64,000 nt of DNA. Origin: a virus. Shown here in pieces: positions 4,858-64,000 of this stretch. The translations under genes were made by a program, and so were the position numbers. The stretch lies in IMG/VR virus record IMGVR_UViG_3300008266_000015; one strand, 5' to 3'. The notes beneath the pieces are model-generated. The model had not been told where the DNA came from and made no database searches. It saw only the letters and a program-made list of their open reading frames with translations. Position 1 is the first letter of the stretch. Each line of letters begins with the position of its first letter.

Positions 4858-5184
4858 ATGAATCGTTATCAACCTATTCCAATCATTATTATTGATAAAA
4901 AACCAGTATACCAAACAACAAAGTATCCTGAAATTCCTTTATCTGATAATGATGCATATGTTTATACAACTCAAGGTGATAGATTTGATATATTAGCACA
5001 ACAATACTATGGAGATCAATCATTATGGTGGGTCATTTCTATTGCTAATACAGCAGTAGCAGGAACATCACTTCCAGCTGATCTACCTCAAGATTCATTA
5101 ATTATACCTGAAGGCAACCAAATCCGAATCCCAGCAAATTATGCGGATGTAATAAATAGTTTTAGAGTTTTAAATAATTTATAA
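4858..5184 (+). CDS. LysM-like baseplate wedge protein (gp53/tail X-like)
   Basis: TTQGDRFDILAQQYYGDQSLWWVISIAN ... GNQIRIP LysM-type signature. Confidence 0.8.
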   Translation: MNRYQPIPIIIIDKKPVYQTTKYPEIPLSDNDAYVYTTQGDRFDILAQQYYGDQSLWWVISIANTAVAGTSLPADLPQDSLIIPEGNQIRIPANYADVINSFRVLNNL

Positions 5185-5187
5185 GTT

Positions 5188-8097
5188 ATGAATATATTAG
5201 GTGAAGGTTTCCCTAAAGAAATAGTAGAACAGGTCGCCCAACGACAAAAAAGATTTGGATCTGGATATACTACAAATCGCGATCCTGAAGAAATAGTATA
5301 TTTAAATGCTAATACTTCTTGGGTAAAATTAATTTCATCAGTTGATGTTATAGATCAAAAAATTCTTCAAGACGAATCTTTAAAAAATGTTCAAGGAATA
5401 AAGGATAACAATCTTGCTAAAAAGTTTGTTTTGTTTAATGGAACCATAAATGAAGGTACTAATGAACAAAGAGCAGGTTTAACTCAAACCAATTCACCTT
5501 TAGGAGGTAATAATGCATACGGAATTGGAGGAACAGAATTTGGTTTACGCCCAATGATGGGTATTCAATCAGCAGAAATTAAACATGAAAATAGAGGATC
5601 AATTCGTAGAGCCACAGTAAAAATTAAAGCATTTAATCGAATTCAATTTGATATAATTGATGCTTTATACCTTAGATTAGGTTTTAGTGTGCTACTTGAA
5701 TGGGGACATTCAATGTATTATGACAACAATGGAATTCTACAAAAAGGCTCTGATATAAACAATAGTTTAGCAGATGATTTTTTAAAAGGAGGAATAACAT
5801 ACGATAAATTTCTTGATAAAATTCAAAAAAATCGAATCTCATCTAAAGGAAATTACGATGCAATGTTTGCTAAAGTTTCTAATATCCATTGGTCCTTCAA
5901 CCCAGATGGTAGTTATGATATTACTTTAGATTTAGTAAGTATTGGAGATATTATTGAATCTTTTAAAATTAATTCATTAACCAATTCTAACACATTCGGA
6001 AATATTACTCAGGATAGTTTATTCCCCAAAACAGTTATTGACGCTATTAATAAAAGTACTATAGGAAGATTTTTTTATACTATCTATGAAAATATGGGAA
6101 CATCTACTTCCTATTCTCTAGATGTAGCCACATATGGATTTACAACAGGAAAAGTTGATGCTATACAAATTGAATGGAAAAATATAGGACAGCAATATTA
6201 TATTAGATTAGGAACATTTCTACAATTCCTTCAAGAAAAAGTTATTTATCAATCTATTGTAGCTGATCAAAACGCTCCAATAATTAAATTTGATTATGAC
6301 ACAGATTCAAACTTAATGTATCTTGAAAATGATCTACAAGTTAGTATTGATCCTCAAATATGTATGGTAAATCGTACTTTGATATTAAATTCTATTGAAT
6401 TAAATTTTGCGGAACAAGGTGAAGACTTTGAAAGTCCTTTATTTACAGAAAATGTTTCATATGGGCAGATAATGAATATATATGTAAATGGATTATGGAT
6501 ATTAACTAAACTTAATGAATTAGTAGATTCAAATAATAATAAAGTAGTTTTAATTGATTTCTTAAGTACTATTTTATCTTCAATTAATAATTCATTAGGA
6601 GGAACAATTAATTTAGAACCTACTGTAGATGAAACTACAAATACTATAATAATTAGAGATGCAAATCCACTTCCTAACACTGAGGCTGTTATAAATAAAC
6701 TTAATGAATTAAAATATGGTATCTCAAATAAATATGCTAAATTTGATTTATATGGATATAATAAAGTTAATGGAGTAGGTAGTGCCTCATTTATAAAAGA
6801 TTTTTCATTTACTACAGAAATTTCCCCATCGTTATCTACAATGATTACAATTGGTGCCACAGCCAATAGTACTGTAGTAGGAGAAAATGCAACTGCATTT
6901 TCCAAATTTAATGCTGGTTTAAAAGATCGTTTTAAAGAACAAATAGTTCAATCCAAAGAAGAACTATACCAGGAAAGATTTGATGTATACCTTAAGTTAT
7001 TTCAAGATAAAAATGCATTAACCAATCAGTTTAAACAAGTATTTGCAGATTATGTGAGATATTTGATAGATTTATCTGAACAAAATTATAAATCAGATGC
7101 AGCCGAAACATATAGAGATACATTAACCAATATTATAACTTATCAACAACAACTTCGTCAAGTAATAGCTAATATAAATAATAAAAAAGCAGAACAAGAA
7201 GGTAAAAAGCCCATTCCCGCTTTTGCTCCAGGTACTGGTTTTATTCCATTTAATCTATCATTGACAATGGATGGTCTTTCAGGAATGAAAATATATAGTA
7301 AATTTCTAATTGACACTCAAGTTCTACCTGCTAACTATCCTGACAATGCTGAATTTTTGATTAAAAATATTGTACATAAAATTGAAAACAATAAATGGTT
7401 TACAACTTTAGAATCAATAGTTATTTCTAAAGGAAATACAGATGAGAGTGTGTATAAAAAAGACAAAAACCAAATCTCAGATTCTTCACCTACACCCCAA
7501 TCTCAACGTCAAAATACTCCTTCTACTCCCCTTGCTCCTGTAGCTAAAGGATCAGATGCGGATTTATGGAGTTTAGTAGCTATATGTGCTGCGGAAAGTT
7601 TTATACTATTAGATCCTCAAGGAGCAGCAGATGTTGCTCAATCTATCTATAATAGATTAAATGTGGGAGCATATGGTAAAAGTATAAAAGAAATTATAGT
7701 TGCTCCTGGTCAATACGAACCCGTATTTAGAAATAAAAATGATTGGGCTAAAATTAAAGATAGAAACACTGCTATTATAGCATACCAAAATTCTAAAAAA
7801 GTACCACTAGCTGATGCTACTTTAGCTATTGATGCTAGCTACAAAGCTATAACCAATCCAACTCTTAAAGCTAATTCTAGAAAGTTTGTAGGTTCTAGAA
7901 CCGAATTCTTGGCCTACAGGCCTAAAAATAAAGAAGCAGTAGGACCAGTTGAAAGACCTAAAATACTTAATAGTAAAGGTAAACTAATAGATACAAGTAA
8001 CGTATTTTTCTGGAACTACACAGGAAAAGCTAAATTATATAATGAAAATAGATTAGCAGCTCTTCCACCTCCATCTAATCTTCCACAATTAGCTTAA
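5188..8097 (+). CDS. Baseplate hub protein with C-terminal SleB-like cell-wall hydrolase
   Basis: Hub-like N-terminus (LLEWGH, FNPDGSYDITL); Pro/Ser/Thr linker; C-terminal ICAAES..AADVAQSIYNR..YGKSIKEIIVAPGQYEP Hydrolase_2 pattern. Confidence 0.65.
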   Translation: MNILGEGFPKEIVEQVAQRQKRFGSGYTTNRDPEEIVYLNANTSWVKLISSVDVIDQKILQDESLKNVQGIKDNNLAKKFVLFNGTINEGTNEQRAGLTQTNSPLGGNNAYGIGGTEFGLRPMMGIQSAEIKHENRGSIRRATVKIKAFNRIQFDIIDALYLRLGFSVLLEWGHSMYYDNNGILQKGSDINNSLADDFLKGGITYDKFLDKIQKNRISSKGNYDAMFAKVSNIHWSFNPDGSYDITLDLVSIGDIIESFKINSLTNSNTFGNITQDSLFPKTVIDAINKSTIGRFFYTIYENMGTSTSYSLDVATYGFTTGKVDAIQIEWKNIGQQYYIRLGTFLQFLQEKVIYQSIVADQNAPIIKFDYDTDSNLMYLENDLQVSIDPQICMVNRTLILNSIELNFAEQGEDFESPLFTENVSYGQIMNIYVNGLWILTKLNELVDSNNNKVVLIDFLSTILSSINNSLGGTINLEPTVDETTNTIIIRDANPLPNTEAVINKLNELKYGISNKYAKFDLYGYNKVNGVGSASFIKDFSFTTEISPSLSTMITIGATANSTVVGENATAFSKFNAGLKDRFKEQIVQSKEELYQERFDVYLKLFQDKNALTNQFKQVFADYVRYLIDLSEQNYKSDAAETYRDTLTNIITYQQQLRQVIANINNKKAEQEGKKPIPAFAPGTGFIPFNLSLTMDGLSGMKIYSKFLIDTQVLPANYPDNAEFLIKNIVHKIENNKWFTTLESIVISKGNTDESVYKKDKNQISDSSPTPQSQRQNTPSTPLAPVAKGSDADLWSLVAICAAESFILLDPQGAADVAQSIYNRLNVGAYGKSIKEIIVAPGQYEPVFRNKNDWAKIKDRNTAIIAYQNSKKVPLADATLAIDASYKAITNPTLKANSRKFVGSRTEFLAYRPKNKEAVGPVERPKILNSKGKLIDTSNVFFWNYTGKAKLYNENRLAALPPPSNLPQLA

Positions 8098-8104
8098 TTA
8101 TATT

Positions 8105-8710
8105 ATGTATTATCCATTATCTCAAATAACTTCCAATTTGTATACTAATGGTAGAGAATTTGCATATTTAAATACTAAACAACCATACATTGGATACTAT
8201 TGGAAAACCTCAGATGGAAAATTCTTCACAGGTAAAACTCCACAAGATACTCCCTCAGAAGAAATTATTGTATATACTCCTGAAACTAATATTGAAACCT
8301 CAGTAGCAATAAATGGAGATTCTTCTTATTATAATCAATTTGATTCTAATACTTTTAATTATTTAAATATAGTTTCCCCACCACCCCCTGCACTCCCCCC
8401 ACTTTATTCACCAACAATCCCAACTCAAAAAGAATATCAAATAGGAGAATATAGAAGATATTTTTGTAAAAAAACCAATGAAATCATTTATCTTGAAATA
8501 AATAAAGATACATACGATAAATTAGTAAATAAAGACTCAAAAATACTATACCAACTATATCAACCATTTAATTTACCTTGGCAGTTGACAGGAAATAAAT
8601 CTCAAGTATTTATAACAAACAAAAATATAACTGAGTTAACAAGTCAACAACAAAAACTACCAATGCTCTCAGAATATTTAAAAAACGATTTCACAAAATA
8701 TTATAAATAA
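8105..8710 (+). CDS. Hypothetical baseplate-region protein
   Basis: 201-aa ORF in tail module, overlapping the next start codon. Confidence 0.5.
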   Translation: MYYPLSQITSNLYTNGREFAYLNTKQPYIGYYWKTSDGKFFTGKTPQDTPSEEIIVYTPETNIETSVAINGDSSYYNQFDSNTFNYLNIVSPPPPALPPLYSPTIPTQKEYQIGEYRRYFCKKTNEIIYLEINKDTYDKLVNKDSKILYQLYQPFNLPWQLTGNKSQVFITNKNITELTSQQQKLPMLSEYLKNDFTKYYK

Positions 8711-9174
8711 TGGTAACTTCACAACAAGCATTAAAAAAATACGGCGATCCTAATTTATTAGCAACCCAAAATAAACATTTTATTACATGGAATGTACCTT
8801 TAGATATACAACAAGCATTTTCTCATGTTAGATTTAGTGCTGTTGGTATAATAGGTTTTCCTAAGAGAATTTTTGTAAATAAAGATTTACAAATACCTTT
8901 AGAAGCAGGTTTAAGAAATGTCATTACTAGAGGTTTTAGTAAAGAACTAAAAACATGGGATGGATGTTTTATTATAAGAAATAAAAGAGGTTTATCTTCA
9001 ATGAGTCTACACTCATGGGCTATCGCATTTGATGTTAATGCTTTTGAAAACCAATTAAACCAACAACCTAAACTATCAGCAGGATTTGTAAAATGTTTTA
9101 CAGATGTTGGTTTTGATTGGGGTGGTACTTGGACTAGAAAAGATGGAATGCATTTCCAATTAAGTAAAATATAA
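8710..9174 (+). CDS. Endolysin, peptidase M15 family (L-Ala-D-Glu peptidase-like)
   Basis: SLHSWAIAFD (SxHxxxxAxD) and WGGTW..KDGMHFQ zinc motifs. Confidence 0.85.
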   Translation: MVTSQQALKKYGDPNLLATQNKHFITWNVPLDIQQAFSHVRFSAVGIIGFPKRIFVNKDLQIPLEAGLRNVITRGFSKELKTWDGCFIIRNKRGLSSMSLHSWAIAFDVNAFENQLNQQPKLSAGFVKCFTDVGFDWGGTWTRKDGMHFQLSKI

Positions 9175-9176
9175 AA

Positions 9177-9257
9177 ATATACGGACTTAGGACCGTCTAT
9201 AGCTTCGGCTATGAAAACACCCCACGGAGTCGCTACCTAGGGTGTTTTCTCTTTTTT
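9177..9257 (+). ncRNA. Candidate structured RNA (three hairpins) ending in an intrinsic terminator
   Basis: ACGG-acttagga-CCGT (9181-9196); ATAGC-ttcg-GCTAT (9199-9212); GAAAACACCC..GGGTGTTTTC (9213-9249) then a T-tract; GC-rich island in an AT-rich genome. Confidence 0.5.
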
Positions 9258-9267
9258 ACTAAAAAAC

Positions 9268-9296
9268 TAGGATTCCATAAAGATAATTTTTATATT
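9268..9296 (+). promoter_or_regulatory. T(A/T)GG-N19-TATATT promoter (first of 14 exact copies)
   Basis: T(A/T)GG starts at 9268, 11652, 20206, 25127, 26961, 30491, 31620, 34487, 37712, 45485, 54041, 58146, 59284, 60113, each with exactly 19 nt to TATATT; TTGA variant at 35503; all just upstream of genes. Confidence 0.85.
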
Positions 9297-9316
9297 TACT
9301 ACAAATAAAAAAGGTT

Positions 9317-10597
9317 ATGTTTTATGTAGTGGAAACTAACGAACAGTTAGCAGAATTATTTTACAAAGGTTACAACAAAGTATTTATAGAGCCAATATAC
9401 TTTAATGACAACGTACATCCATCATTAAACCATGTATCTTTACTATATATTAAACCGTTAAACAACGATAAAGGGTATATTGTATGTCTTGATCACTCTG
9501 AGACATTATCATTGAATAAAACGCCTATAAACAATTTACTTGCTTCTTATGAGGAAATATATGTACGCGATAGAAAATCATTTATATATTTTTTTCCACT
9601 TAGAAATACCATAGATATTTCATTTGGTGTACCTGAATATACTGAGCCAAATACATCTGCTCATGATTTCTTTTATCAAAGACATGGAGATAAAGGAACA
9701 TTAAATACTATTATACCTGCTGTTAAGCATTATGAAAAATGTGAACTTATTTTTGATAAAATAAAACAACATTGTGTTAAACCCCATAATATAAAGTTTT
9801 ACAATAAATTAACTAGTGTATTTTTTTCAATTGAAAGAAACGGAATAAAAATTAATCCAAATGAATTTGAGAAATTTTTCGAACCAAACTGTAAATTATT
9901 TTCATTACAAGACAATGCAATATATACCCAATATAACTTGCATACTACCACTGGAAGACCTTCTAATAGCTTCAATGGTATTAATTTCGCGGCTTTAAAG
10001 AAAGAAGATGGGTGTAGAGAGGTATTTATTCCTGAAAATGACTATTTTGTTGAAATAGATATTAGTGCTTATCATCCAACATTAGCTGCCCAATTAGTAG
10101 AATATGATTTTGAAAATGAAACACCATATCAATATTTTGCTAGAGAAGCAAATATAGAAATTGATGAAGCAAAAATACTAATGTTTAGACAATTATATGG
10201 AGGAATATACAAAGAATATCAACATATACCTTATTTTCAATTAATCCAAAAACACATAGATAAATTATGGGAAATGTTTCAAACAGATGGATTCATAGAA
10301 TGTCCTATTTCTGGTCATAAATTAACTAAAGAAATAAAAGATTTAAATCCACAAAAATTATTTAATTATACACTCCAAAACTTGGAAACATCAACAAATG
10401 TTCTTATATTGTGGGATATTGTTAAGGTGTTGAAGAGTAAATCAACAAAGATTGTGTTATACACATATGATGCTATTTTGATTGATTATAATGAAGAAGA
10501 TAATATATTAGAGCAAATTAACCAAATATTTAAAAAATACAAATTAAAAACCAAAATGACAAAAGGCCATAATTATGGAAATATGTCAATAATATAA
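9317..10597 (+). CDS. Divergent family A DNA polymerase-like protein
   Basis: TTTGRPS, motif A EIDISAYHP, motif B AKILMFRQLYGG, motif C YTYDAILID; short (426 aa) with degenerate N-terminal domain. Confidence 0.75.
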   Translation: MFYVVETNEQLAELFYKGYNKVFIEPIYFNDNVHPSLNHVSLLYIKPLNNDKGYIVCLDHSETLSLNKTPINNLLASYEEIYVRDRKSFIYFFPLRNTIDISFGVPEYTEPNTSAHDFFYQRHGDKGTLNTIIPAVKHYEKCELIFDKIKQHCVKPHNIKFYNKLTSVFFSIERNGIKINPNEFEKFFEPNCKLFSLQDNAIYTQYNLHTTTGRPSNSFNGINFAALKKEDGCREVFIPENDYFVEIDISAYHPTLAAQLVEYDFENETPYQYFAREANIEIDEAKILMFRQLYGGIYKEYQHIPYFQLIQKHIDKLWEMFQTDGFIECPISGHKLTKEIKDLNPQKLFNYTLQNLETSTNVLILWDIVKVLKSKSTKIVLYTYDAILIDYNEEDNILEQINQIFKKYKLKTKMTKGHNYGNMSII

Positions 10598-10603
10598 TAA
10601 GTT

Positions 10604-11062
10604 ATGGAACTACTCGAGTTTGAACCCTCAGTTGATATGTATAATCGATATGATTATACTACTGAAAGTGACACTATGAATAATAGATTATTTGCTACAT
10701 TTACCCAACAAGACCACCTAGATGAATTGGTTTCCAATTTATCTACTACATACGATATTATGTACAATAAGATGTTTGTTTTATTTGTCAAGAGCACAAA
10801 CGAATATGTTATTACATATAATGTAGAGCAAGGAAATGTTAATGGCATCCCAGCTAATACAATATTAGTACATCGTAAAAAAGAATCAAATACATTATAT
10901 ACAATAAATGCATTAAATGATCTAATTAGAAAATTAAATGATGGGATTGCAGATCCATATTTTAAAGTAAATTGGTTAGATTATAAAAATTGTATTTTAT
11001 TAACTCAACATGGAGAAGTAAAACAACTTAATACAAAAATATACAAGATTATAGATTTATGA
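10604..11062 (+). CDS. Hypothetical protein in the replication module
   Basis: 152-aa ORF with AAGTTATG start context. Confidence 0.6.
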   Translation: MELLEFEPSVDMYNRYDYTTESDTMNNRLFATFTQQDHLDELVSNLSTTYDIMYNKMFVLFVKSTNEYVITYNVEQGNVNGIPANTILVHRKKESNTLYTINALNDLIRKLNDGIADPYFKVNWLDYKNCILLTQHGEVKQLNTKIYKIIDL

Positions 11063-11556
11063 TTAAATTAGTTGATTTATTAAAAGAGGTTCAATTGTCT
11101 TCAAAAGAACAAGACATACTTGATGATATTTTGTCATTAGATGAAGCTGTAGATTTTTCAAATGTTATGGATAAAGTAAAAAGTTATGTTAAAAAAGGAC
11201 TAATCACAGCTACTATTTTAGCTTCACTATTAAACAATAGTGCTTTTAGTCAAGAACAAAAAGATCAAATTAAAGATATAGTTAAAACTGAAAAACAAGT
11301 AGATAACGATATTTTAAGTTTTAAAGATTTCCAAAAACTAATAAAAAAAGAAGGATTCGAAACAACACCAGGAAGTATTCCCATTAATATGATCAAAGGA
11401 GTTGAAAATGTTAAGGTATATAGAGCAGTAGGTCAAACACAAGGCGCCGCTATGCAATCCGCAATGCAACAAGCTAAAAATCCTATTAAAAGTTTTAAAT
11501 TTAGTAGAAATGTAGGGGGCAATATTGAGGTTTTAATTGCTGTACCTTCTCAATAG
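11059..11556 (+). CDS. Hypothetical protein with MIKLxDLLKE leader and internal hydrophobic segment
   Basis: N-terminus resembles 29832 and 55597. Confidence 0.6.
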   Translation: MIKLVDLLKEVQLSSKEQDILDDILSLDEAVDFSNVMDKVKSYVKKGLITATILASLLNNSAFSQEQKDQIKDIVKTEKQVDNDILSFKDFQKLIKKEGFETTPGSIPINMIKGVENVKVYRAVGQTQGAAMQSAMQQAKNPIKSFKFSRNVGGNIEVLIAVPSQ

Positions 11557-36035: not shown

Positions 36036-37670
<1,635 letters not shown>

Positions 37671-56624: not shown

Positions 56625-56765
56625 ATGGCAAAGACAAAAGAATCCTCTTCAAAACTATTAAGCAAAACAAAAATTAAACGTCCTGGTGTACATAGCAAGA
56701 AAAAAACCAGTTCTCTAAAATCAAGCAAAAATTATAAAAAATTGTATAACGCTCAAGGAAAATGA
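56625..56765 (+). CDS. Small very basic protein
   Basis: MAKTKESSSKTIKQNKIKRPGVHSKKKTSSLKSSKNYKKLYNAQGK*; ATATTTAT at 56611; ATGA overlap with 56762. Confidence 0.65.
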   Translation: MAKTKESSSKLLSKTKIKRPGVHSKKKTSSLKSSKNYKKLYNAQGK

Positions 56766-56803
56766 AAAAATCGGAATTGAAACAAATCATTAAGGAGGAA
56801 ATC
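56762..56803 (+). repeat. Dispersed ~42-bp coding repeat (leader) at 30966, 56762, 57108, 57631; partial at 58878
   Basis: atgaaaaaatcNgaaYtNMaacaRMtYatYaaRgaRgaaat; differences mostly synonymous. Confidence 0.8.
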
Positions 56804-57106
56804 ACTAAAGCACTAACAGAAATAGAAAATAGTGAAGACTATTCAGATTTAGTTTATAAAGATATGTGGGAGGATTTACTTACATGGGCTAAATCTAATA
56901 GAACTTCTACAAGAAAGGATGCCAAATATCCAAGTTTAAAAAAACAAGAAGAATATTTATTCTCTATTGCACCAACGTATGGTGTTGATGTTAACATGTT
57001 AAAAAAAGCACTAAAACAATACGATGCAATCCATAACAGAACATACGGTATGATTCCTGGTGGACTAACGTGGCAAGAATGGGTTGATGCTAAAATAAGC
57101 AAATAA
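56762..57106 (+). CDS. MKKSEL-leader protein
   Basis: MKKSELKQIIKEEITKALTE. Confidence 0.7.
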   Translation: MKKSELKQIIKEEITKALTEIENSEDYSDLVYKDMWEDLLTWAKSNRTSTRKDAKYPSLKKQEEYLFSIAPTYGVDVNMLKKALKQYDAIHNRTYGMIPGGLTWQEWVDAKISK

Positions 57107-57107
57107 A

Positions 57108-57629
57108 ATGAAAAAATCTGAACTGAAACAGATCATTAAGGAGGAAATTGAAAAAGCACTATCTAGTACCCCATCAATTGAATTAAATACTTCTTTTCTT
57201 CAATCCCAAGATGATTTTGAAAGGGGAGGAGATACAGGATATACGGTATGGAAACCTGAATTTAAAAATGGTTTAAAAGCCAACCAACAAAATTTTAAAT
57301 CCTCAGGTAAACCAGCTATCCCAGTTCAAAGAGTAAAATTTGAAATGATAGATACTATGAGTGATAGAGGGGAAGATATATCTTACATTAATGTTAAGTT
57401 TAAAAAACCATTAAATGAAATCTTTATTGATTTAGATGATTACGATCCTGAAGAATTTGGTGTAGAAGATTTTGAGAAATTTGATGAAATAGTTGATTCT
57501 AAACAAAACCCAACATTACAAGATGTTTCTGGATTAATTGATTTGAAAAATAAAAATCTCAGTTTTTATGGTTGTTATGTTTTAGATATCAAACCAAACG
57601 AGATAGTTAAAATTACAAAAGAAAATTAA
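57108..57629 (+). CDS. MKKSEL-leader protein
   Basis: MKKSELKQIIKEEIEKALS. Confidence 0.7.
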   Translation: MKKSELKQIIKEEIEKALSSTPSIELNTSFLQSQDDFERGGDTGYTVWKPEFKNGLKANQQNFKSSGKPAIPVQRVKFEMIDTMSDRGEDISYINVKFKKPLNEIFIDLDDYDPEEFGVEDFEKFDEIVDSKQNPTLQDVSGLIDLKNKNLSFYGCYVLDIKPNEIVKITKEN

Positions 57630-57630
57630 A

Positions 57631-58140
57631 ATGAAAAAATCTGAACTACAACAACTTATCAAAGAGGAAATATTAGCTGAGGTTAAAAAAGATAAATCTG
57701 GTTTACCATTCGCTCTAGCAGCAAATATCGAGAAATACGGTTCACCACGCACCCCAAAAGGAGCTAAGCCAACTGACTTTACTAAAAAACAAGAAAAAAG
57801 TGTAAAGAAAACAGCTGAAAAACTTAAGAAATCTATTTCCGAAAACAAAGACAACTACATGTTTTTCCAAAACCTTAAGACAATTAAAGATGCTGTAGAT
57901 GAAATGTTATCACTTGACCCATCAATGGTGGATATAATTTTATCTGATGGACACGACTGGGCTAACGACCATATTGCAACATCAAAAGACGATGTTGAAG
58001 AGGTTAAAAATTTCCTCACATCTAAAAGAGTCGTAGCAGAAAAACTTAAAGGCGGACAAAAGAAACTAGACGTGGCTGAACCAAAAGGGAAAATCACGGC
58101 TGCGGATTTTAAGGCTCTGCAAGCAATGAAGAAAAAATAG
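57631..58140 (+). CDS. MKKSEL-leader protein, modular
   Basis: MKKSELQQLIKEEILAE; C-terminal QKKLDVAEPKGKITAADF EF-hand-like motif. Confidence 0.7.
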   Translation: MKKSELQQLIKEEILAEVKKDKSGLPFALAANIEKYGSPRTPKGAKPTDFTKKQEKSVKKTAEKLKKSISENKDNYMFFQNLKTIKDAVDEMLSLDPSMVDIILSDGHDWANDHIATSKDDVEEVKNFLTSKRVVAEKLKGGQKKLDVAEPKGKITAADFKALQAMKKK

Positions 58141-58166
58141 AGGACTAGGAATACAAGTCCTCTTTT
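58140..58166 (+). terminator. Terminator hairpin overlapping a promoter
   Basis: GAGGACT-aggaataca-AGTCCTC then TTTT; TAGG at 58146. Confidence 0.65.
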
Positions 58167-58199
58167 CTTATATTTAATCAACTTAAAAAACAAAAGGTT

Positions 58200-58718
58200 A
58201 TGAACGTAATAGAAAATACAGAAATCTTCCCACCACGCAAACGTTTCGTGGATGTTGAAGAAAAATTTACCAAATACATCATTGGTGGTCGTGTATTACC
58301 AGTAACGTACTTTGAAGACCCATCAATTCATTTCACATTAAAAGCAGTATACCAACCAGGAGATAAAAGAACATTTCCTAATGGTGGTTTTGAAGTGTAT
58401 GGTCCTGAGGGTAGTGTGTTTAACTATGAATTAGATCAATTAGTAATGCATCCATTTCATTATAGAATGATGAATTATTTTTCTAAAGCACAAAACATTG
58501 TTAAAGAAAAAGTAACTACAGGTGTAAAAGGTAGACGGGGACGTCCACGTAAAGACCCAAGCGAATTAAAAACGCAAGCAGTGTATGTACCAACTGGTGG
58601 AACGCGTGGACGCAAACCAATGGACCCTGCACTTAAAGCATTGAAAGAAGCTGAAAAAGCAGAACGTGCTTTACTAAGCAATGGAAGACGCGGACGTCCA
58701 AAAAAAGTAGTCTCTTAG
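58200..58718 (+). CDS. AT-hook DNA-binding protein
   Basis: RRGRPRK, RGRKP, RRGRPKK. Confidence 0.7.
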   Translation: MNVIENTEIFPPRKRFVDVEEKFTKYIIGGRVLPVTYFEDPSIHFTLKAVYQPGDKRTFPNGGFEVYGPEGSVFNYELDQLVMHPFHYRMMNYFSKAQNIVKEKVTTGVKGRRGRPRKDPSELKTQAVYVPTGGTRGRKPMDPALKALKEAEKAERALLSNGRRGRPKKVVS

Positions 58719-58726
58719 GAGACTAC
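58707..58726. terminator. Hairpin at the end of the AT-hook gene
   Basis: GTAGTCTC-ttag-GAGACTAC perfect 8-bp stem just before ATATTTAT. Confidence 0.55.
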
Positions 58727-58754
58727 ACATATTTATAATAAAATATTTGTTACT

Positions 58755-59267
58755 ATGAAATTTACAAATTCTTGGAAATCATTCAATAAACAACACGATA
58801 AAATTAGAATCGTAGTTCGTATAGCATCTTTAACATTACTCGAAATTAATGTCGATATTTCTTCGAAACTATATAAATTTATCAAAGAGGAAATCCAAAA
58901 CGTTCTAAGCGAAATTGATCCTGTCCAACAAGGATTTGACGCTGCTATGAAAAGAGCAGGTGTTGAACCAAGTGCTAGTGGGAGAAATACCCAACAATCA
59001 GAAGAATGGTTTCAAGGAAGAAGAGCATACGAGGCTGATCTAAAATCGGGTAAACAAACAAAAAACCCATATACTGAACCCGAAAATTTTACTGGTAGAT
59101 CACAAAGAACCGATACATTTGCTGAGCGCAGTAAAAAAGCAAAAGAATGGACATTAGGATACGCAACAGCTATGAAACGCAATCCACCTCCATCTACCCA
59201 ATCCAAACAACCAGATCTTTCTTCATACTATGCAGAGAAAGGATCCGGTGGATACACAGGAGATTAA
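58755..59267 (+). CDS. Apparent fusion protein: short N-terminal ORF + truncated IKEEI leader + RMF-like domain
   Basis: Internal FIKEEIQNVLSE; WFQGRRAY..NPY..WTLGY..AM. Confidence 0.55.
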   Translation: MKFTNSWKSFNKQHDKIRIVVRIASLTLLEINVDISSKLYKFIKEEIQNVLSEIDPVQQGFDAAMKRAGVEPSASGRNTQQSEEWFQGRRAYEADLKSGKQTKNPYTEPENFTGRSQRTDTFAERSKKAKEWTLGYATAMKRNPPPSTQSKQPDLSSYYAEKGSGGYTGD

Positions 59268-59277
59268 AATTTAAATT

Positions 59278-59305
59278 GAGGGCTTGGGTTACCAAGCTCT
59301 CTTTT
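59278..59305 (+). terminator. Terminator hairpin overlapping a promoter
   Basis: GAGGGCTTGG-gtta-CCAAGCTCTC then TTTT; TTGG at 59284. Confidence 0.7.
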
Positions 59306-59330
59306 GTATATTAAATAAAAATTAAAGGTT

Positions 59331-59624
59331 ATGAGTAAAAGAGGTAGACCAATAGAAACCAAACCAGAGGAACAATCCACTAAATTTACTAGAGAATATA
59401 TCTCCCCAGAAAAAGTAAAACAAGTTTGGACCTATGATCTAAATAAATTTAAAAGAGGCCCTATATCGGTAGATATTCACTATCCAACTAATTATGTCTC
59501 GTTAGAGGAGGAGGAAGAAAAACTTCCTATCTCAAAACGCAAATACCTAAATCCAAATACAGGTAAATGGGTAGCATATCAACGTGCTTGTGCATTAGGT
59601 TTAATTGAAAAGAAAAATAAATAA
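59331..59624 (+). CDS. Hypothetical protein with N-terminal AT-hook
   Basis: MSKRGRP. Confidence 0.6.
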   Translation: MSKRGRPIETKPEEQSTKFTREYISPEKVKQVWTYDLNKFKRGPISVDIHYPTNYVSLEEEEEKLPISKRKYLNPNTGKWVAYQRACALGLIEKKNK

Positions 59625-59627
59625 GTT

Positions 59628-59900
59628 ATGAAAAAAACAGGACAAATGACCACACTGTGGTTAAAAGCAAAAGAACTAATTAAAGAAAACAATCCAGAAA
59701 AAGTAGAACAACTATCTGAACTATTGGAATGGGGTATCTTATGTTTGGCTAAAGCACATTTAGAGGACGGAATTACAGACGACAAAACACTAATGGAAGG
59801 TGTTAAAAAGGAAACCTGGCACGAACGCTTCTGGATTGCAATGGAAAACTATGTTTGGCCTACCTATCCCGACTATGAGGAAAATTGGAAATGTAATTAG
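59628..59900 (+). CDS. Hypothetical protein
   Basis: 90-aa ORF, AAGTTATG start. Confidence 0.6.
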   Translation: MKKTGQMTTLWLKAKELIKENNPEKVEQLSELLEWGILCLAKAHLEDGITDDKTLMEGVKKETWHERFWIAMENYVWPTYPDYEENWKCN

Positions 59901-59902
59901 TT

Positions 59903-60115
59903 ATGAGTAAAAAACATAAAATGCTAGATTGGGAGGTTGAAGAACCTCAATACATTGTGTTCAATCAACACGCCCATGTTTTTATTGGTTTAATTAATGG
60001 TTGGCCTAATTTCTCAAACAATATTGAGGATGCTAAACCACTTAAAGGCCAGGAAAAATTCCAAACATTAAAGAGATATTCAAAGATGGATTTAGAACAA
60101 GAATTCATAGATTAG
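59903..60115 (+). CDS. Hypothetical protein
   Basis: 70-aa ORF. Confidence 0.55.
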   Translation: MSKKHKMLDWEVEEPQYIVFNQHAHVFIGLINGWPNFSNNIEDAKPLKGQEKFQTLKRYSKMDLEQEFID

Positions 60116-60149
60116 GAATACATTATAAATTTTTGTATATTTAAGAATT

Positions 60150-60449
60150 ATGAGTGAGAAAGAAGGACAAACAGAAAAATTAATCTATGATTTTAATACA
60201 GCAAACTGTTGTGAGGTACAATTACCTAATGAGGAATGGTATCGAGTTACACCTCGTGAGTTTAGATCATCCTCCCGACCACGCCGTATTTTAAAAAAAC
60301 AAGAATATGAGGAATACATTGGTCCAATTTATTATTATGGCACAAACCAAAAAGTAAAAGACAACCAAATATACAAAATAGGATTACTGTTTATTAACGA
60401 AATAGACACAAGAAACTCATCAACAAACAAAAAATATGGTAGAATATGA
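60150..60449 (+). CDS. Hypothetical protein
   Basis: 99-aa ORF behind the promoter at 60113. Confidence 0.6.
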   Translation: MSEKEGQTEKLIYDFNTANCCEVQLPNEEWYRVTPREFRSSSRPRRILKKQEYEEYIGPIYYYGTNQKVKDNQIYKIGLLFINEIDTRNSSTNKKYGRI

Positions 60450-60873
60450 AACGTTTATTAAGGATGAATTAAAAAAACATAAAATCAGAGTACATAAATG
60501 GGGAAAATATGATGAAAACGAAACATACTGGGCTTATTTTAATTCAAGAAGAGTATACATACCTGTCCCTGAATGTAGTTATTCATTGCTATTATCATTA
60601 CATGAAATAGGACATCTAGTAATGGGAAACCACATATATGGACATATAGCTGAATACAAAGCGGAAATGTGGGCAATTAAAACCGCATTTGAAAAATTCA
60701 ATATAAAAAATGAGGAATATGAATCTACAGGAAGAAACTATATTTATGAAAATATATTAGAGGATATATTAGTTAGGAAAATGGAGATTGATGAAATTCC
60801 TAAACCAATAATGAAATGGGTAAGAACAACACCAACTAAAATTAGAAAAAGTATAATTAAATATAAACTATGA
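60436..60873 (+). CDS. HEXXH zinc metallopeptidase-like protein (ImmA/IrrE-like)
   Basis: LHEIGHL followed by EYKAEMWA. Confidence 0.7.
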   Translation: MVEYETFIKDELKKHKIRVHKWGKYDENETYWAYFNSRRVYIPVPECSYSLLLSLHEIGHLVMGNHIYGHIAEYKAEMWAIKTAFEKFNIKNEEYESTGRNYIYENILEDILVRKMEIDEIPKPIMKWVRTTPTKIRKSIIKYKL

Positions 60874-61451
60874 AACAATATCAACCATTACAAATCCCAA
60901 ATGATAGCGCCTGGGATAGAAAAACATGGCGTTCATATACACCTATTTGGTTTAATAGATTTATAGAAGGTATTCGAAATATTATTATTTGGATTCCTAC
61001 AATTTATAAAAACAAAGACTGGGACCATCGTTATATCTATGATATACTTGAATTTAAGTTATTACAACAACGTAATTACTTAGTTAAAGCAAATAGACAT
61101 ACAGGTATTCCTGAAACAAACTACTATATTACAATTTGTTTAAATTTAATTCAGCGAATTAAAGATGATTACTACGGATGTGAATATTTTGATTATCATG
61201 AAGTTAATCATGAATTTATTCCAGTTAAAGATGAAAATTTTTCTACATTAGAAACAACAACAGTTTGGGAAAATTATGATGTGTATTTATCTATGTATCC
61301 TTTACAAGTTAAAAAATTATTAAAAAAAGATCCTGAATTGGAAGAGGATAAACATAGATTATGTTTACTTGTAGGTAGAGAAAATGAACAGCGTGCTCAA
61401 TCATTGTTATTTAAAATACTAAATAATAAAATAAACCACTGGTGGGATTAA
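60870..61451 (+). CDS. Phage hypothetical protein
   Basis: W.P.I.K.KDWD, C-terminal HWWD. Confidence 0.6.
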   Translation: MKQYQPLQIPNDSAWDRKTWRSYTPIWFNRFIEGIRNIIIWIPTIYKNKDWDHRYIYDILEFKLLQQRNYLVKANRHTGIPETNYYITICLNLIQRIKDDYYGCEYFDYHEVNHEFIPVKDENFSTLETTTVWENYDVYLSMYPLQVKKLLKKDPELEEDKHRLCLLVGRENEQRAQSLLFKILNNKINHWWD

Positions 61452-61475
61452 TAAATAAATTAAAAAATAAAAATT

Positions 61476-61733
61476 ATGCCTTACATTAACGTAGATATTG
61501 ATGATACTGTCCAAGTAAATCTAGATATTAATGATTTTCTTGATAATTGTGATGATGAAGATATTAAAAATATAATCGAGTATTTAAGAGAAGATGGACA
61601 TCTAATATATAAAGATTTAACTGAAAATATAACTGAAATAGATAAATTTTTATTTAAAATAGCAGATGCTCAAATTCAATTAACCACAGAAGAAGAAATA
61701 ATAATTAAAAACATAGCAACTAGACTTGTATAA
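61476..61733 (+). CDS. Acidic hypothetical protein
   Basis: 85-aa ORF. Confidence 0.55.
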   Translation: MPYINVDIDDTVQVNLDINDFLDNCDDEDIKNIIEYLREDGHLIYKDLTENITEIDKFLFKIADAQIQLTTEEEIIIKNIATRLV

Positions 61734-63087
61734 AATTATATTATTAGCTTTATTTACTACCAAACTATATTGCCAAATACCAGGCCCAACAACAAATTGG
61801 TATTTTGGAGTTAATGCTGGCATTACTTTCAATAGTGGTATCCCTATTGCTTTAACAAATGGTGCTTTAATTACAACAGAAGGGGTAGCCACTATATCAG
61901 ATAATTCAGGAAATTTACTTTTTTATACAGATGGAGTTACAGTTTACAACAGAATCCATAATGTAATGACTAATGGAACAGGATTGTTTGGACATGCTTC
62001 TTCTACACAATCCGCCATTATTGTTCAAAAACCAGGTTCAACAAACATATATTATATTTTTACTTCCACTATTGATGCTGGTTCAAATGGAATATGTTAT
62101 TCAATAGTAGACATGAATTTAAGTGCAGGATTTGGAGCAGTTACTATTAAAAACACTTTTTTATATGCTCCCTCTTGTGAAAAACTATGTGCAATTAGAC
62201 ATTGCAACAATGTAGATATTTGGGTAGTATCTCATGACTGGAATTCAAATGTATTTAGAGTATGGTCTGTAAATAGTTTAGGAGTAGGAACCACACAAAT
62301 ATGGTCATCAGCAGGCATTGTCCCAACAGGTATTGTTCAAAGTGCTTATGGTCAATTAAAAGCAAGTTCAGATGGAAAAAAACTAGCCGCATGTTATTAT
62401 GGTTTTACTGGAGGTGGAATTAATAGATTACAAATATATGATTTTAATAATTCCACAGGCGTTGTTTCTAATGCTATTACTTTAGCAACAGATGTTGGTT
62501 TATATGGATGTGAATTTTCTCCTGATAATAAATTATTATATGCCTCTACAAACCAAGGATTGCTACTACAGTTTAATCTATGTTCAACACCCGTCTCTAG
62601 ATACGTTGTTTCAAACAATGGACCATTTATTGGATCGCTTCAAATAGGACCTGATAGAAAAATATATGTTGCTAGAAATCAAACAAGCTTATCAGTAATA
62701 AACAACCCAAATATTGTTGGTGTGGGTTGTGGTTTTTCCGATTTATCCGTTTCATTAGCAGGAAGAGCAGGAAGAATGGGTTTACCTAACTTTGCATCCT
62801 ACTATTCTACTCCACAATTTGTACTTTCAAATCCAACAATAAATTGTACTACTGCTTTATTTAGTGTTCCTCCTAATATAACTAATTGCTCTAATTCAAC
62901 AACTTATACTTACTTATGGAATTTTGGAGATGGAAATATCTCTTCTAATCCAAATCCATCTCACACATATTTATCACCAGGAACTTATATTGTTACTTTA
63001 CAAATAATAGAAACCTGTTTTACAATAACAATAAACAAAACAATAACAATTACAAACGGAATAACAACCTCAGTCTTTACTAACTAA
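61726..63087 (+). CDS. Secreted beta-propeller + PKD-domain protein of Bacteroidota type
   Basis: TTG start, signal peptide KLYC|Q; NWYFG.NAG..F, EG.ATISD..GNLLFYTDG, SSTQSAIIV.KPG, YGCEFSPD, LQIGPD.KIY, GLPNF; PKD YLWNFGDG....NPSHTY..PGTY.VTL. Confidence 0.8.
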   Translation: MYKIILLALFTTKLYCQIPGPTTNWYFGVNAGITFNSGIPIALTNGALITTEGVATISDNSGNLLFYTDGVTVYNRIHNVMTNGTGLFGHASSTQSAIIVQKPGSTNIYYIFTSTIDAGSNGICYSIVDMNLSAGFGAVTIKNTFLYAPSCEKLCAIRHCNNVDIWVVSHDWNSNVFRVWSVNSLGVGTTQIWSSAGIVPTGIVQSAYGQLKASSDGKKLAACYYGFTGGGINRLQIYDFNNSTGVVSNAITLATDVGLYGCEFSPDNKLLYASTNQGLLLQFNLCSTPVSRYVVSNNGPFIGSLQIGPDRKIYVARNQTSLSVINNPNIVGVGCGFSDLSVSLAGRAGRMGLPNFASYYSTPQFVLSNPTINCTTALFSVPPNITNCSNSTTYTYLWNFGDGNISSNPNPSHTYLSPGTYIVTLQIIETCFTITINKTITITNGITTSVFTN

Positions 63088-63092
63088 ATTTT

Positions 63093-63659
63093 ATGAAAAA
63101 ATACATCTTTACATTGATTTTAATATTAATTACTTTAATATTATCGGCTCAAGTCCCAACACCAAACCCTGCTAATAATACTTCTAACTGTATAAATGAT
63201 GTTCAAGTATATGGAGATCAAGTAATAGATCCATTAGCTACATATTCATTTACAATTGCTCCTGCTATTCCATTTACCTCTATTTCTAATGGAGATCAAA
63301 TCCAAGTAACATGGACTACACCTGGGGTATACATTATTACAATTACAGAAACAGTGGGAATATGTTCATCAACCTCACAAGCAACTATAAATGTATTGCC
63401 TCCAACTATACCATTGGTTATTACAGATGCAATATGTGTTGGTAATGGAACAATTACTTTAACTTCTACCCCATTAGGTACATCCCCTATATTTAGTGGA
63501 ACAGGAGTAACAGGAAATACATTTGATGCAACTGGTTTAGCCCCAGGAGTATATCCAATTACTTTCACTTCCACTGATGCAAATGGATGCCCAATGACGG
63601 GAAATGGTTCAATTACTATTACTCCTCCACCACCCCCACCAACTATTTTTACTAACTAA
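63093..63659 (+). CDS. Secreted Ig/PKD-like repeat protein
   Basis: Signal peptide LSA|Q; VTWTTPGVY, FSGTGVTGNTFD....PGVYPITF..TDANGC; ends PPTIFTN. Confidence 0.75.
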   Translation: MKKYIFTLILILITLILSAQVPTPNPANNTSNCINDVQVYGDQVIDPLATYSFTIAPAIPFTSISNGDQIQVTWTTPGVYIITITETVGICSSTSQATINVLPPTIPLVITDAICVGNGTITLTSTPLGTSPIFSGTGVTGNTFDATGLAPGVYPITFTSTDANGCPMTGNGSITITPPPPPPTIFTN

Positions 63660-63661
63660 AA

Positions 63662-64000
63662 ATGTTAAATAAAACAATAATCATATTTTTATATATTTTT
63701 GTTTTAAATGTTTTATTAATTAAAGCACAGCCTCAAATAATTAGCTTGTGTGATACCTCTCCTATCTATAAAAAATATTGGATAGAATCAATACCGGGAT
63801 ACGATAATGTTTGGTCTATATATCCTGAGGTAGAATATCAACTTCAACTCGACAATACAATAGTGGTTCAATGGATAAATTCAGGAACATATACTATAGT
63901 TGCTCAATATGTTAGTGAGAATTGTAATAGCAAAAGTGAACTCCAGATACAAATAGAAGAATGTCCTGATGTTTTTATTTATATTCCAAATAGTTTTACC
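63662..64000 (+). CDS. Secreted protein with start of T9SS type-B (CHU_C / gliding-motility-associated) C-terminal domain (partial)
   Basis: Open to window end: MLNKTIIIFLYIFVLNVLLIKA|QPQ...VQWINSGTYTI...IEECPDVFIYIPNSFT. Confidence 0.7.
   Translation, partial: MLNKTIIIFLYIFVLNVLLIKAQPQIISLCDTSPIYKKYWIESIPGYDNVWSIYPEVEYQLQLDNTIVVQWINSGTYTIVAQYVSENCNSKSELQIQIEECPDVFIYIPNSFT

Follow-up and report, generated by a model that had tools for sequence, protein, structure and literature searches.

A phage-borne cassette of three exported proteins that reads as a miniature SprB-type adhesin cut into pieces

At the right end of a 64,000-nucleotide stretch of viral DNA (IMG/VR virus record IMGVR_UViG_3300008266_000015; the window hereafter means this whole stretch), three consecutive and tightly packed open reading frames (ORFs), here named p1, p2 and p3, encode a β-propeller protein, an immunoglobulin (Ig)-like protein and the beginning of a further Ig-like protein, each with the N-terminus of an exported protein. 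The locus raises the question of what such a cassette does in a phage genome and how its products could leave the infected cell. The answer that we consider fairly probable is that the three genes encode a split adhesin made in infected Bacteroidota: p3 would be a type-B cargo of the secretion system known as type IX (T9SS) that uses a host shuttle, p1 and p2 would be joined to p3, and the cell would display a phage-made, adhesin-like structure.

Export signals and domains of the three proteins

The N-termini of p1, p2 and p3 all consist of a short basic stretch and a hydrophobic core, followed by a small residue and then glutamine. In p1 the sequence is M-YKIILLALFTTKLYC|Q, with a putative signal peptide of approximately residues 1-16, and the putative signal peptides of p2 and p3 end in LILSA|Q and LLIKA|Q, respectively. 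Glutamine directly after the signal peptidase I cleavage site is known as the Q-rule in Bacteroidetes (PMC5837995), and the three window proteins show C|Q, A|Q and A|Q at this site, just as a preliminary description of the sequence, which had noticed three consecutive ORFs with a Sec signal peptide and a following glutamine, had listed them. The +1 glutamine is retained behind a hydrophobic core in the printed orthologues of all three families, and the segment MLNKTIIIFLYIFVLNVLLIKA|Q of P0133, an orthologue of p3, is identical in the window (relatives are cited by our own numbers, L, P and G).

The same description had taken the partial third ORF for a cargo with a type-B (CHU_C) T9SS sorting domain, which its relatives bear out. 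Within the window, p3 comprises one small Ig-like domain with three conserved cysteines and then the start of a sorting domain, IPNSFT, the available part ending in CPDVFIYIPNSFT. P0133, a metagenomic protein of 201 residues, is 90% identical to p3 over 113 of 113 residues; it continues with PNGDNVND and ends in GKILLIK, which gives a sorting domain from about residue 107 to 201, at the extreme C-terminus of a chain that begins with a Sec signal peptide, and it has a precomputed PF13585 annotation. The two hidden Markov models (HMMs) that had been named as a check, TIGR04131 and PF13585, were matched above their curated cutoffs in orthologues: PF13585 (CHU_C) by the p3 orthologue of L087 (E-value 9.7e-17, 61.3 bits against a cutoff of 27) and TIGR04131 by P0122, P0128 and P0137 (50.6-53.9 bits against a cutoff of 35). 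An alignment of the p3 family has the invariant core P..F.PN..ND...RWG...W.G. These comparisons support p3 as a genuine type-B T9SS cargo, the complete domain being seen in its 90%-identical orthologue.

No T9SS sorting domain is present in p1 or p2. The earlier idea of three T9SS-type surface proteins thus stands for p3, through the domain of its orthologue, and falls for the other two, although the domains that had been read from their sequences proved right. The AlphaFold2 model of p1 (30 homologues, pLDDT 81) is a seven-bladed β-propeller followed by a PKD domain, which occupies residues ∼380-445 and matches the PKD_4 HMM with an E-value of 5.7e-12. The best match of p1 in the PDB is 1L0Q, the tandem of YVTN propeller and PKD domain from an archaeal surface-layer protein. 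A short tail, TSVFTN, forms its C-terminus.

The AlphaFold2 model of p2 (pLDDT 91) contains two Ig-like β-sandwiches, in line with the Ig-like protein that had been proposed; it also has a proline-rich linker and the tail TIFTN. Its HMM matches to PKD and Por_Secre_tail were all below threshold. Among known structures, the best TM-scores (0.51-0.58, at 20-24% sequence identity) were to Ig-like fragments from the shaft of GhpA (PDB 9FLS, 9FLY), which forms the grappling hook of the Bacteroidota bacterium Aureispira. GhpA, a T9SS-related surface filament, is a giant single chain, and the likeness to the tandem Ig-like domains of p2 concerns the domain fold only. We found 63 homologues of p2, mostly of 179-196 residues, and the majority have exactly 188.

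Correspondence to single-chain adhesins

In their domains and order, the three proteins follow the layout of single-chain type-B adhesins, such as SprB of Flavobacterium johnsoniae, with which they also share the Sec signal peptide. This can be traced in the closest bacterial relative, the protein of metagenome contig L088, a chain of 2620 residues with 22 SprB repeats and a CHU_C domain, which is encoded among ordinary bacterial genes. It opens with a propeller and PKD head, matched by p1 at residues 1 to ∼450 (57% identity), continues into an Ig-like shaft, matched by p2 at residues 534-633 (39%), and closes with a last Ig-like domain and CHU_C, matched by p3 at residues 2500-2610 (39%). The L008 protein shows the same p1-p2-p3 collinearity, and p2 is 39-41% identical to internal Ig repeats of these two fused adhesins. 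Further, the end of p1 coincides exactly with the linker that precedes the next cysteine-initiated domain in the fused homologues. By these alignments, p1 would correspond to the head, p2 to the following shaft and p3 to the C-terminus of a single-chain SprB-type adhesin. Because of this collinearity, the cassette reads as an adhesin in miniature, of which only a head, a short shaft and a carrier are left, each exported as a protein of its own, with the cuts at domain boundaries.

The differences are nevertheless considerable. SprB-type adhesins are single chains of thousands of residues with SprB repeats, whereas the phage version consists of three proteins of about 840 residues in total and has none of these repeats. 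PF13573, the SprB repeat family, gave no match in p1, p2 or p3; it is present in the proteins of L088 and L008 and in a one-piece protein of the phage contig L227. The cassette appears, therefore, to be related to SprB-repeat adhesins and is not a member of the PF13573 repeat family. It differs from these adhesins also in being phage-encoded and, as judged in relatives, in having no adjacent sprF-like gene.

For the head, the relationship could be followed in a tree. The p1 family is large, and among 401 sampled Bacteroidota genomes, 73 have a p1-type head domain, at no more than 48% identity, which in nearly all cases begins a much longer open frame. Long head-bearing proteins end in T9SS sorting domains, of type B in L011, L008 and L088 and of type A in L007. 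In an unrooted FastTree phylogeny of 97 head domains, several rows of which are long, the standalone p1 proteins group in one supported clade (SH-like 97). This clade lies within the fused bacterial forms, its nearest neighbour being the L088 type. A standalone orthologue of p2 was not found in the 401 genomes, where p2 had only weak matches to internal Ig repeats of giant proteins.

We also considered whether the same split cassette occurs in the sampled bacterial genomes, and rejected this; standalone p1-like genes do exist there, in G129, without p2 or p3. On this bacterial chromosome (L274, G129:C1), three tandem standalone propeller-head genes, encoding proteins of 473-512 residues with 30-33% identity to p1, are interleaved with two exported proteins of ∼245-250 residues that end in IN(V/I)LF(I/V)(V/I)K. 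The G129 locus may represent a different split arrangement.

The cassette in phage genomes

The window comes from a large lake phage. All its ORFs of at least 250 residues lie on the + strand, and it encodes a tape-measure protein, a DnaB-like helicase, a ribonucleotide reductase, a thymidylate synthase, a family-B DNA polymerase (PolB) and GroEL. The PolB is 32% identical to the polymerase of Microcystis phage Mel-JY01, and a megablast search with positions 58000-64000 against 50,697 GenBank phage records gave zero matches and thus no close relative. The Q-rule signal peptides and the T9SS tag support a Bacteroidota bacterium as the probable host.

Since the p1 family is otherwise found typically in surface proteins of bacteria, and since GC and AT skew change at ∼62 kb, the last 2.3 kb could be suspected to stem from a host chromosome that flanks a prophage, or from a chimeric join in the assembly. 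We regard this as hardly credible. L087, a 5.3-kb contig from a lake metagenome, is collinear gene for gene with window positions 58719-64000, at 56-87% protein identity, with a nucleotide identity of 77-80% to the left and to the right of the point where the phage genes give way to the cassette. In L181, which derives from a 174.7-kb IMG/VR contig, homologues of the window ORFs 60150, 60436 and 61476 are followed by p1 (72% identity, compared to 77% in L087), p2 (71%) and p3. The same junction is thus found in two independently assembled relatives that are 20-30% diverged, with equal divergence on either side. Beyond p3, the sequences of L181, L183, L001 and L090 proceed with genes of phage type, namely small phage ORFs and a fibre-like protein, as well as other exported proteins. 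The closest bacterial homologue of p1 in 185,579 species genomes, by comparison, is only 49% identical.

Within the window, the TTG start codon of p1 overlaps the stop codon of an upstream 85-aa ORF by 8 nucleotides, an overlap with a phage ORF from which, together with an unchanged composition, the preliminary description had concluded that the cassette is part of the phage. On composition it was right in part. The GC content (0.32 against 0.31), a GC content at third codon positions of 0.15 and the relative synonymous codon usage (r 0.915; the median of the other genes of the phage is 0.908) fit the phage, but the skews do shift; this is because the cassette proteins are rich in threonine, serine, glycine and proline and poor in lysine and glutamate. 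The ratios of nonsynonymous to synonymous substitution rates (dN/dS) against L087 are 0.235 for p1, 0.278 for p2 and 0.135 for p3. The cassette genes are therefore under purifying selection, with dN/dS of 0.13-0.28, and the neighbouring phage genes have values of 0.15-0.38 at similar dS. Because L087 and L181 are syntenic with the window through the junction, and because of the phage codon usage and the purifying selection, we conclude that the cassette belongs to the phage, and is neither host DNA nor a chimeric join.

It is also widespread. Scanning IMG/VR with a full-length p3 alignment revealed relatives of p3 in at least 547 stretches, mostly from relatives of the window phage; the same scan with an alignment headed by the incomplete window p3 found nothing, and neither window ORF 60870 nor P0121 had a match in IMG/VR as a single query; an exact 42-mer taken from the end of the window was likewise absent from IMG/VR. 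Of the 80 best p3 loci, 76 share more with the window, mostly phage core genes (thymidylate synthase, tape measure, PolB) and in some cases only cassette members. There are 65 distinct p3-like genes, 39 of them small and 26 encoding one-piece proteins of ∼650-820 residues, and next to 30 of the 39 small ones lie genes for exported proteins that lack a sorting domain. p3 is the sole member of the cassette that is conserved universally, and it is also found without p1.

Position and order of the genes vary. The L194 cassette is found amid genes of the replication region, ∼4 kb upstream of PolB, and in L198 the gene order is p2-p3-p1. Being located inside a phage genome, flanked by phage genes and variable in position between relatives, the cassette is an accessory element of the 'moron' type. 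Downstream of the cassette in L181 there are further exported proteins, one of which ends in LIYDLSGRVIGVK, resembling a type-A sorting domain, at no Pfam match; another has a PKD domain.

The one-piece proteins form a second arrangement. In L227, a protein with SprB repeats, a PKD(-like) domain and CHU_C adjoins the tail genes, and exported one-piece proteins of ∼735-820 residues that start with ...YSQYCP.LGPDQ occur in L227, L235, L237, L238, L241, L243, L258, L205 and L200; the Pfam scan among these was made on L227. In several contigs, the one-piece gene has tail genes on one side and the tape-measure gene on the other.

Beyond these relatives, the huge phages LR745206.1 (635 kb) and LR756502.1 (642 kb), whose records are unannotated, each encode three to four CHU_C proteins with a signal peptide. 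p1 is absent from both records, and a tblastn search with p1 against GenBank phages gave no match. PHROGs recognised no cassette protein of L001 and few of its neighbours.

The 99-aa ORF upstream of the cassette (Table 1) encodes a cytoplasmic-looking protein with homologues in L087 (69% identity by BLASTP), L181 (59%), L001 (49%) and L090 (40%). All relatives seen have it together with the cassette, though its side differs. In the window, L087 and L181 it lies upstream; in L001 and L090 it comes directly after p3 and is followed in turn by a small four-helix membrane protein. We regard it as a linked neighbour of the cassette and not as an established part of it.

Table 1. Coordinates of the cassette, its neighbour and other loci (window positions unless another record is named).
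Feature	Location	Strand	Description
p1	61726-63087	+	453 aa, TTG start; putatively exported head piece
p2	63093-63659	+	188 aa; putatively exported shaft piece
p3	63662-64000	+	113 aa, open at the window edge; N-terminal part of ∼201 aa
99-aa ORF	60150-60449	+	cytoplasmic-looking; cassette-linked neighbour, not a proven component
GroEL-type chaperonin	36039-37670		phage-encoded; PHROG 5725, E-value 6e-150
One-piece protein	L227 3054-5510		SprB repeats, PKD(-like) domain, CHU_C
Further exported proteins	L181 7066-7836 and 9664-10566		downstream of the cassette
CHU_C locus of a huge phage	L167 = LR745206.1 25768-27963		
CHU_C locus of a huge phage	L168 = LR756502.1 514378-519387		
Standalone propeller-head genes	L274 (G129:C1) 4991-11104		bacterial chromosome; three in tandem

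Some features of the window lie apart from the cassette. The GroEL-type chaperonin is encoded in the replication and metabolism region. A leader of ∼14 residues (MKKSELKQIIKEEI-like) is common to several unrelated small ORFs at 56762-59267, and it recurs in diverged relatives (L087 268-1088, L001 723-1202, L227 5532-5900), so that it is a conserved element and not a local duplication. The motif ATATTTAT, a candidate promoter, is found 24 times in the window, which is the chance frequency (23.4 expected). Scans for sigma-70 promoters and terminators near the cassette yielded nothing exceeding shuffled sequences; the sole terminator-like site upstream of the cassette is at 59278-59301.

Possible route to the surface, alternatives and meaning

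From these observations on gene structure, folds, homology, phage ownership, conservation, spread and purifying selection, we propose an export route, the use of a host shuttle, a mode of assembly and a purpose. Sec would export each of the three proteins across the inner membrane of the infected cell, where cleavage by signal peptidase I would leave an N-terminal glutamine. p3, with its one Ig-like domain and its CHU_C/TIGR04131 domain, would then pass through the host SprA translocon to a PorP/SprF-like shuttle of the host and be held there at the surface. p1 and p2 would attach to p3 non-covalently, probably via the short tails conserved at their C-termini, and a single sorting domain could then serve all three. 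A structure of this kind could compete with native type-B adhesins for the shuttle and thereby alter adhesion, gliding or phage adsorption.

Type-B sorting domains have cognate PorP/SprF shuttles as partners, and orphan cargo proteins have an orphan shuttle in common (PMC12618676); PorP-like proteins anchor type-B cargo (PMC9143113). A PorP/SprF partner had been expected of the phage, but did not appear: there is no such gene beside the cassette in L181 or L183, and PF11751 (PorP/SprF) matches neither the 21-kb contig of L001 nor the CHU_C-bearing huge phages LR745206.1 and LR756502.1, compared to eight matches in a Flavobacterium control genome. As no PorP/SprF gene lies beside the cassette in relatives, p3 would be an orphan cargo in need of a host shuttle. 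It would resemble in this the orphan type-B substrates of F. johnsoniae (Fjoh_1123, Fjoh_1720, Fjoh_4934), which likewise have no adjacent PorP/SprF gene (PMC12618676). Their shuttle, Fjoh_1677, shares a genome with its cargo, whereas that of p3 would be encoded by the host, a pairing that we propose by analogy.

The C-terminal tails are the part of the cassette that could explain how the pieces are joined. Across relatives, those members of a cassette that lack a sorting domain tend to have tails of one class: xYT[ND] in the window, L087, L181, L183, L184 and L189, xH[ND], typically PIxHN, in 15 cassettes that are purely of this class, NLQ/QI[DN] in L001 and L090, SDN in L194, and YKQ in L192 and many p1 proteins. 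The two main classes, xYT[ND] and xH[ND], are never mixed in one cassette, and orthologous p1 proteins and unrelated partner proteins both bear the tail class of their own cassette; some extra neighbour proteins have no such tails. This sharing fits a common docking partner. A more specific version, which we offer tentatively and regard as possible rather than likely, is that the tails (TSVFTN, TIFTN; PIxH[ND]; NLQ/QID; SDN; YKQ) are plug-in peptides that dock onto the next piece, for example as an added β-strand. Head, shaft and carrier would be exported by Sec and assembled in the periplasm, a single type-B domain would export and anchor the whole complex, and phages could swap heads on a common carrier. 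In the literature searched, such piggy-back export or modular assembly is not described for the T9SS. A co-variation of the tails with the residues that open the p3 sorting domain was also considered and rejected, since the two do not track each other.

Several points weigh against a split adhesin displayed through the host T9SS. The signal peptides were assigned by inspection and from an N-terminal helix in the models, and secretion, surface display and the interaction of p1, p2 and p3 are inferred from sequences and models. The window stops five residues into the sorting domain, the rest of which is taken from the 90%-identical orthologue, and the diverged p3 of L001 and L090 scores with neither PF13585 nor TIGR04131. 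We found no precedent for the co-export of a non-covalent complex by the T9SS. The likeness of the tails could go back to an ancestral adhesin with homogenised repeat boundaries and need not be the product of selection, the location of the L227-type gene among tail genes would also suit a role in the virion, and the host is placed only at the level of Bacteroidota.

Of the alternatives, one assigns the effect to p3 alone: as an abundant, minimal type-B cargo it would act as a decoy or plug that saturates the PorP/SprF-like shuttle of the host and blocks the display of native adhesins, with p1 and p2 as independent periplasmic or released proteins. The conservation of p3 beyond that of its partners, and its occurrence without p1, are in favour of this, as is the lack of a shuttle gene in the phage cassettes. 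In F. johnsoniae, an over-produced fusion of sfGFP to a type-B domain was secreted only with its co-produced cognate shuttle, suggesting that shuttle supply is limiting, and cargo/shuttle pairs with similar sorting domains show cross-talk (PMC12618676). Native adhesins of this kind are frequent phage receptors and are the gliding adhesins. A decoy, however, leaves the co-varying tails unexplained and would not require p1 and p2 to be kept adjacent to p3 in many lineages under purifying selection, and the collinearity of all three with one adhesin suggests a single structure; we therefore think this explanation unlikely, if still deserving of attention.

A still less probable alternative, to which we give little credence, is that the three proteins are parts of the virion or associated with it, as fibres or decoration proteins, and that the CHU_C-like domain has taken on a structural or binding function in place of that of a secretion signal. 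Phage proteins of this sort commonly contain propeller, PKD and Ig-like domains, as matches in BFVD show, the cassette lies ∼1.3 kb upstream of a tail-fibre-like repeat protein in L001 and L090, and the one-piece gene of L227 and its relatives sits in the tail region. Yet cleavable signal peptides with a +1 glutamine are kept in all three proteins and in the one-piece forms, across many lineages, and would remove the products from the cytoplasm, the site of virion assembly; the sorting domain retains the invariant type-B core at scores above the curated cutoffs; and in the window the cassette is found among small non-structural ORFs, ∼57 kb from the tape-measure gene. As to location, genes for exported proteins inside structural operons have precedent, for example lom and bor of phage lambda.

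For the split adhesin that we favour, the most attractive purpose would be to mask or displace a receptor, which could exclude superinfection or spare the progeny from adsorbing to debris. It is attractive because T9SS adhesins such as SprB and RemA are considered likely phage receptors and because T9SS and gliding mutants resist many flavobacterial phages (PMC9804748). An altered adhesion or gliding of the infected cell is equally conceivable; the preliminary description had suggested superinfection exclusion, adhesion, gliding or grazing avoidance as candidate purposes.

Phage envelope proteins that alter the surface of the infected or lysogenic cell are well known, among them Lom and Bor of lambda, Llp of T5, and Imm and Sp of T4. 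The cassette proteins have no relation to these in sequence or fold and would use a different export route; the likeness would lie in function. A nearer parallel is the Cryophage, a phage of an FCB-group host with T9SS cargo of type A, for which Bellas et al. (2020) proposed a hijacking of the host system and suggested roles in competition or superinfection, calling it a unique occurrence (PMC7468147). As in the cassette, phage genes there carry T9SS sorting domains, but these are of type A (PorV/PorU pathway), on enzymes and a PA14 protein, whereas the window phage has type B on a minimal Ig-like carrier, in a split adhesin, with relatives in hundreds of viral contigs. Q-rule proteins have also been described in Porphyromonas phages (Matrishin et al. 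2023, PMC10367356). In the literature searched, the Cryophage is the one case of T9SS cargo reported from a phage, and we found none of type-B cargo encoded by phages or of phage genes of SprB-like type.

Adhesins that the T9SS displays play a central part in the gliding of Bacteroidota, in their attachment and in the adsorption of phages. The cassette offers a natural minimal type-B cargo, an Ig-like domain of ∼75 residues plus the sorting domain, with which cargo-shuttle recognition could be studied, and an assembly of adhesin pieces in trans, if true, would be a new principle for the T9SS. If phages routinely install a miniature adhesin of their own, infected cells in lakes may stick, move and adsorb other phages differently.

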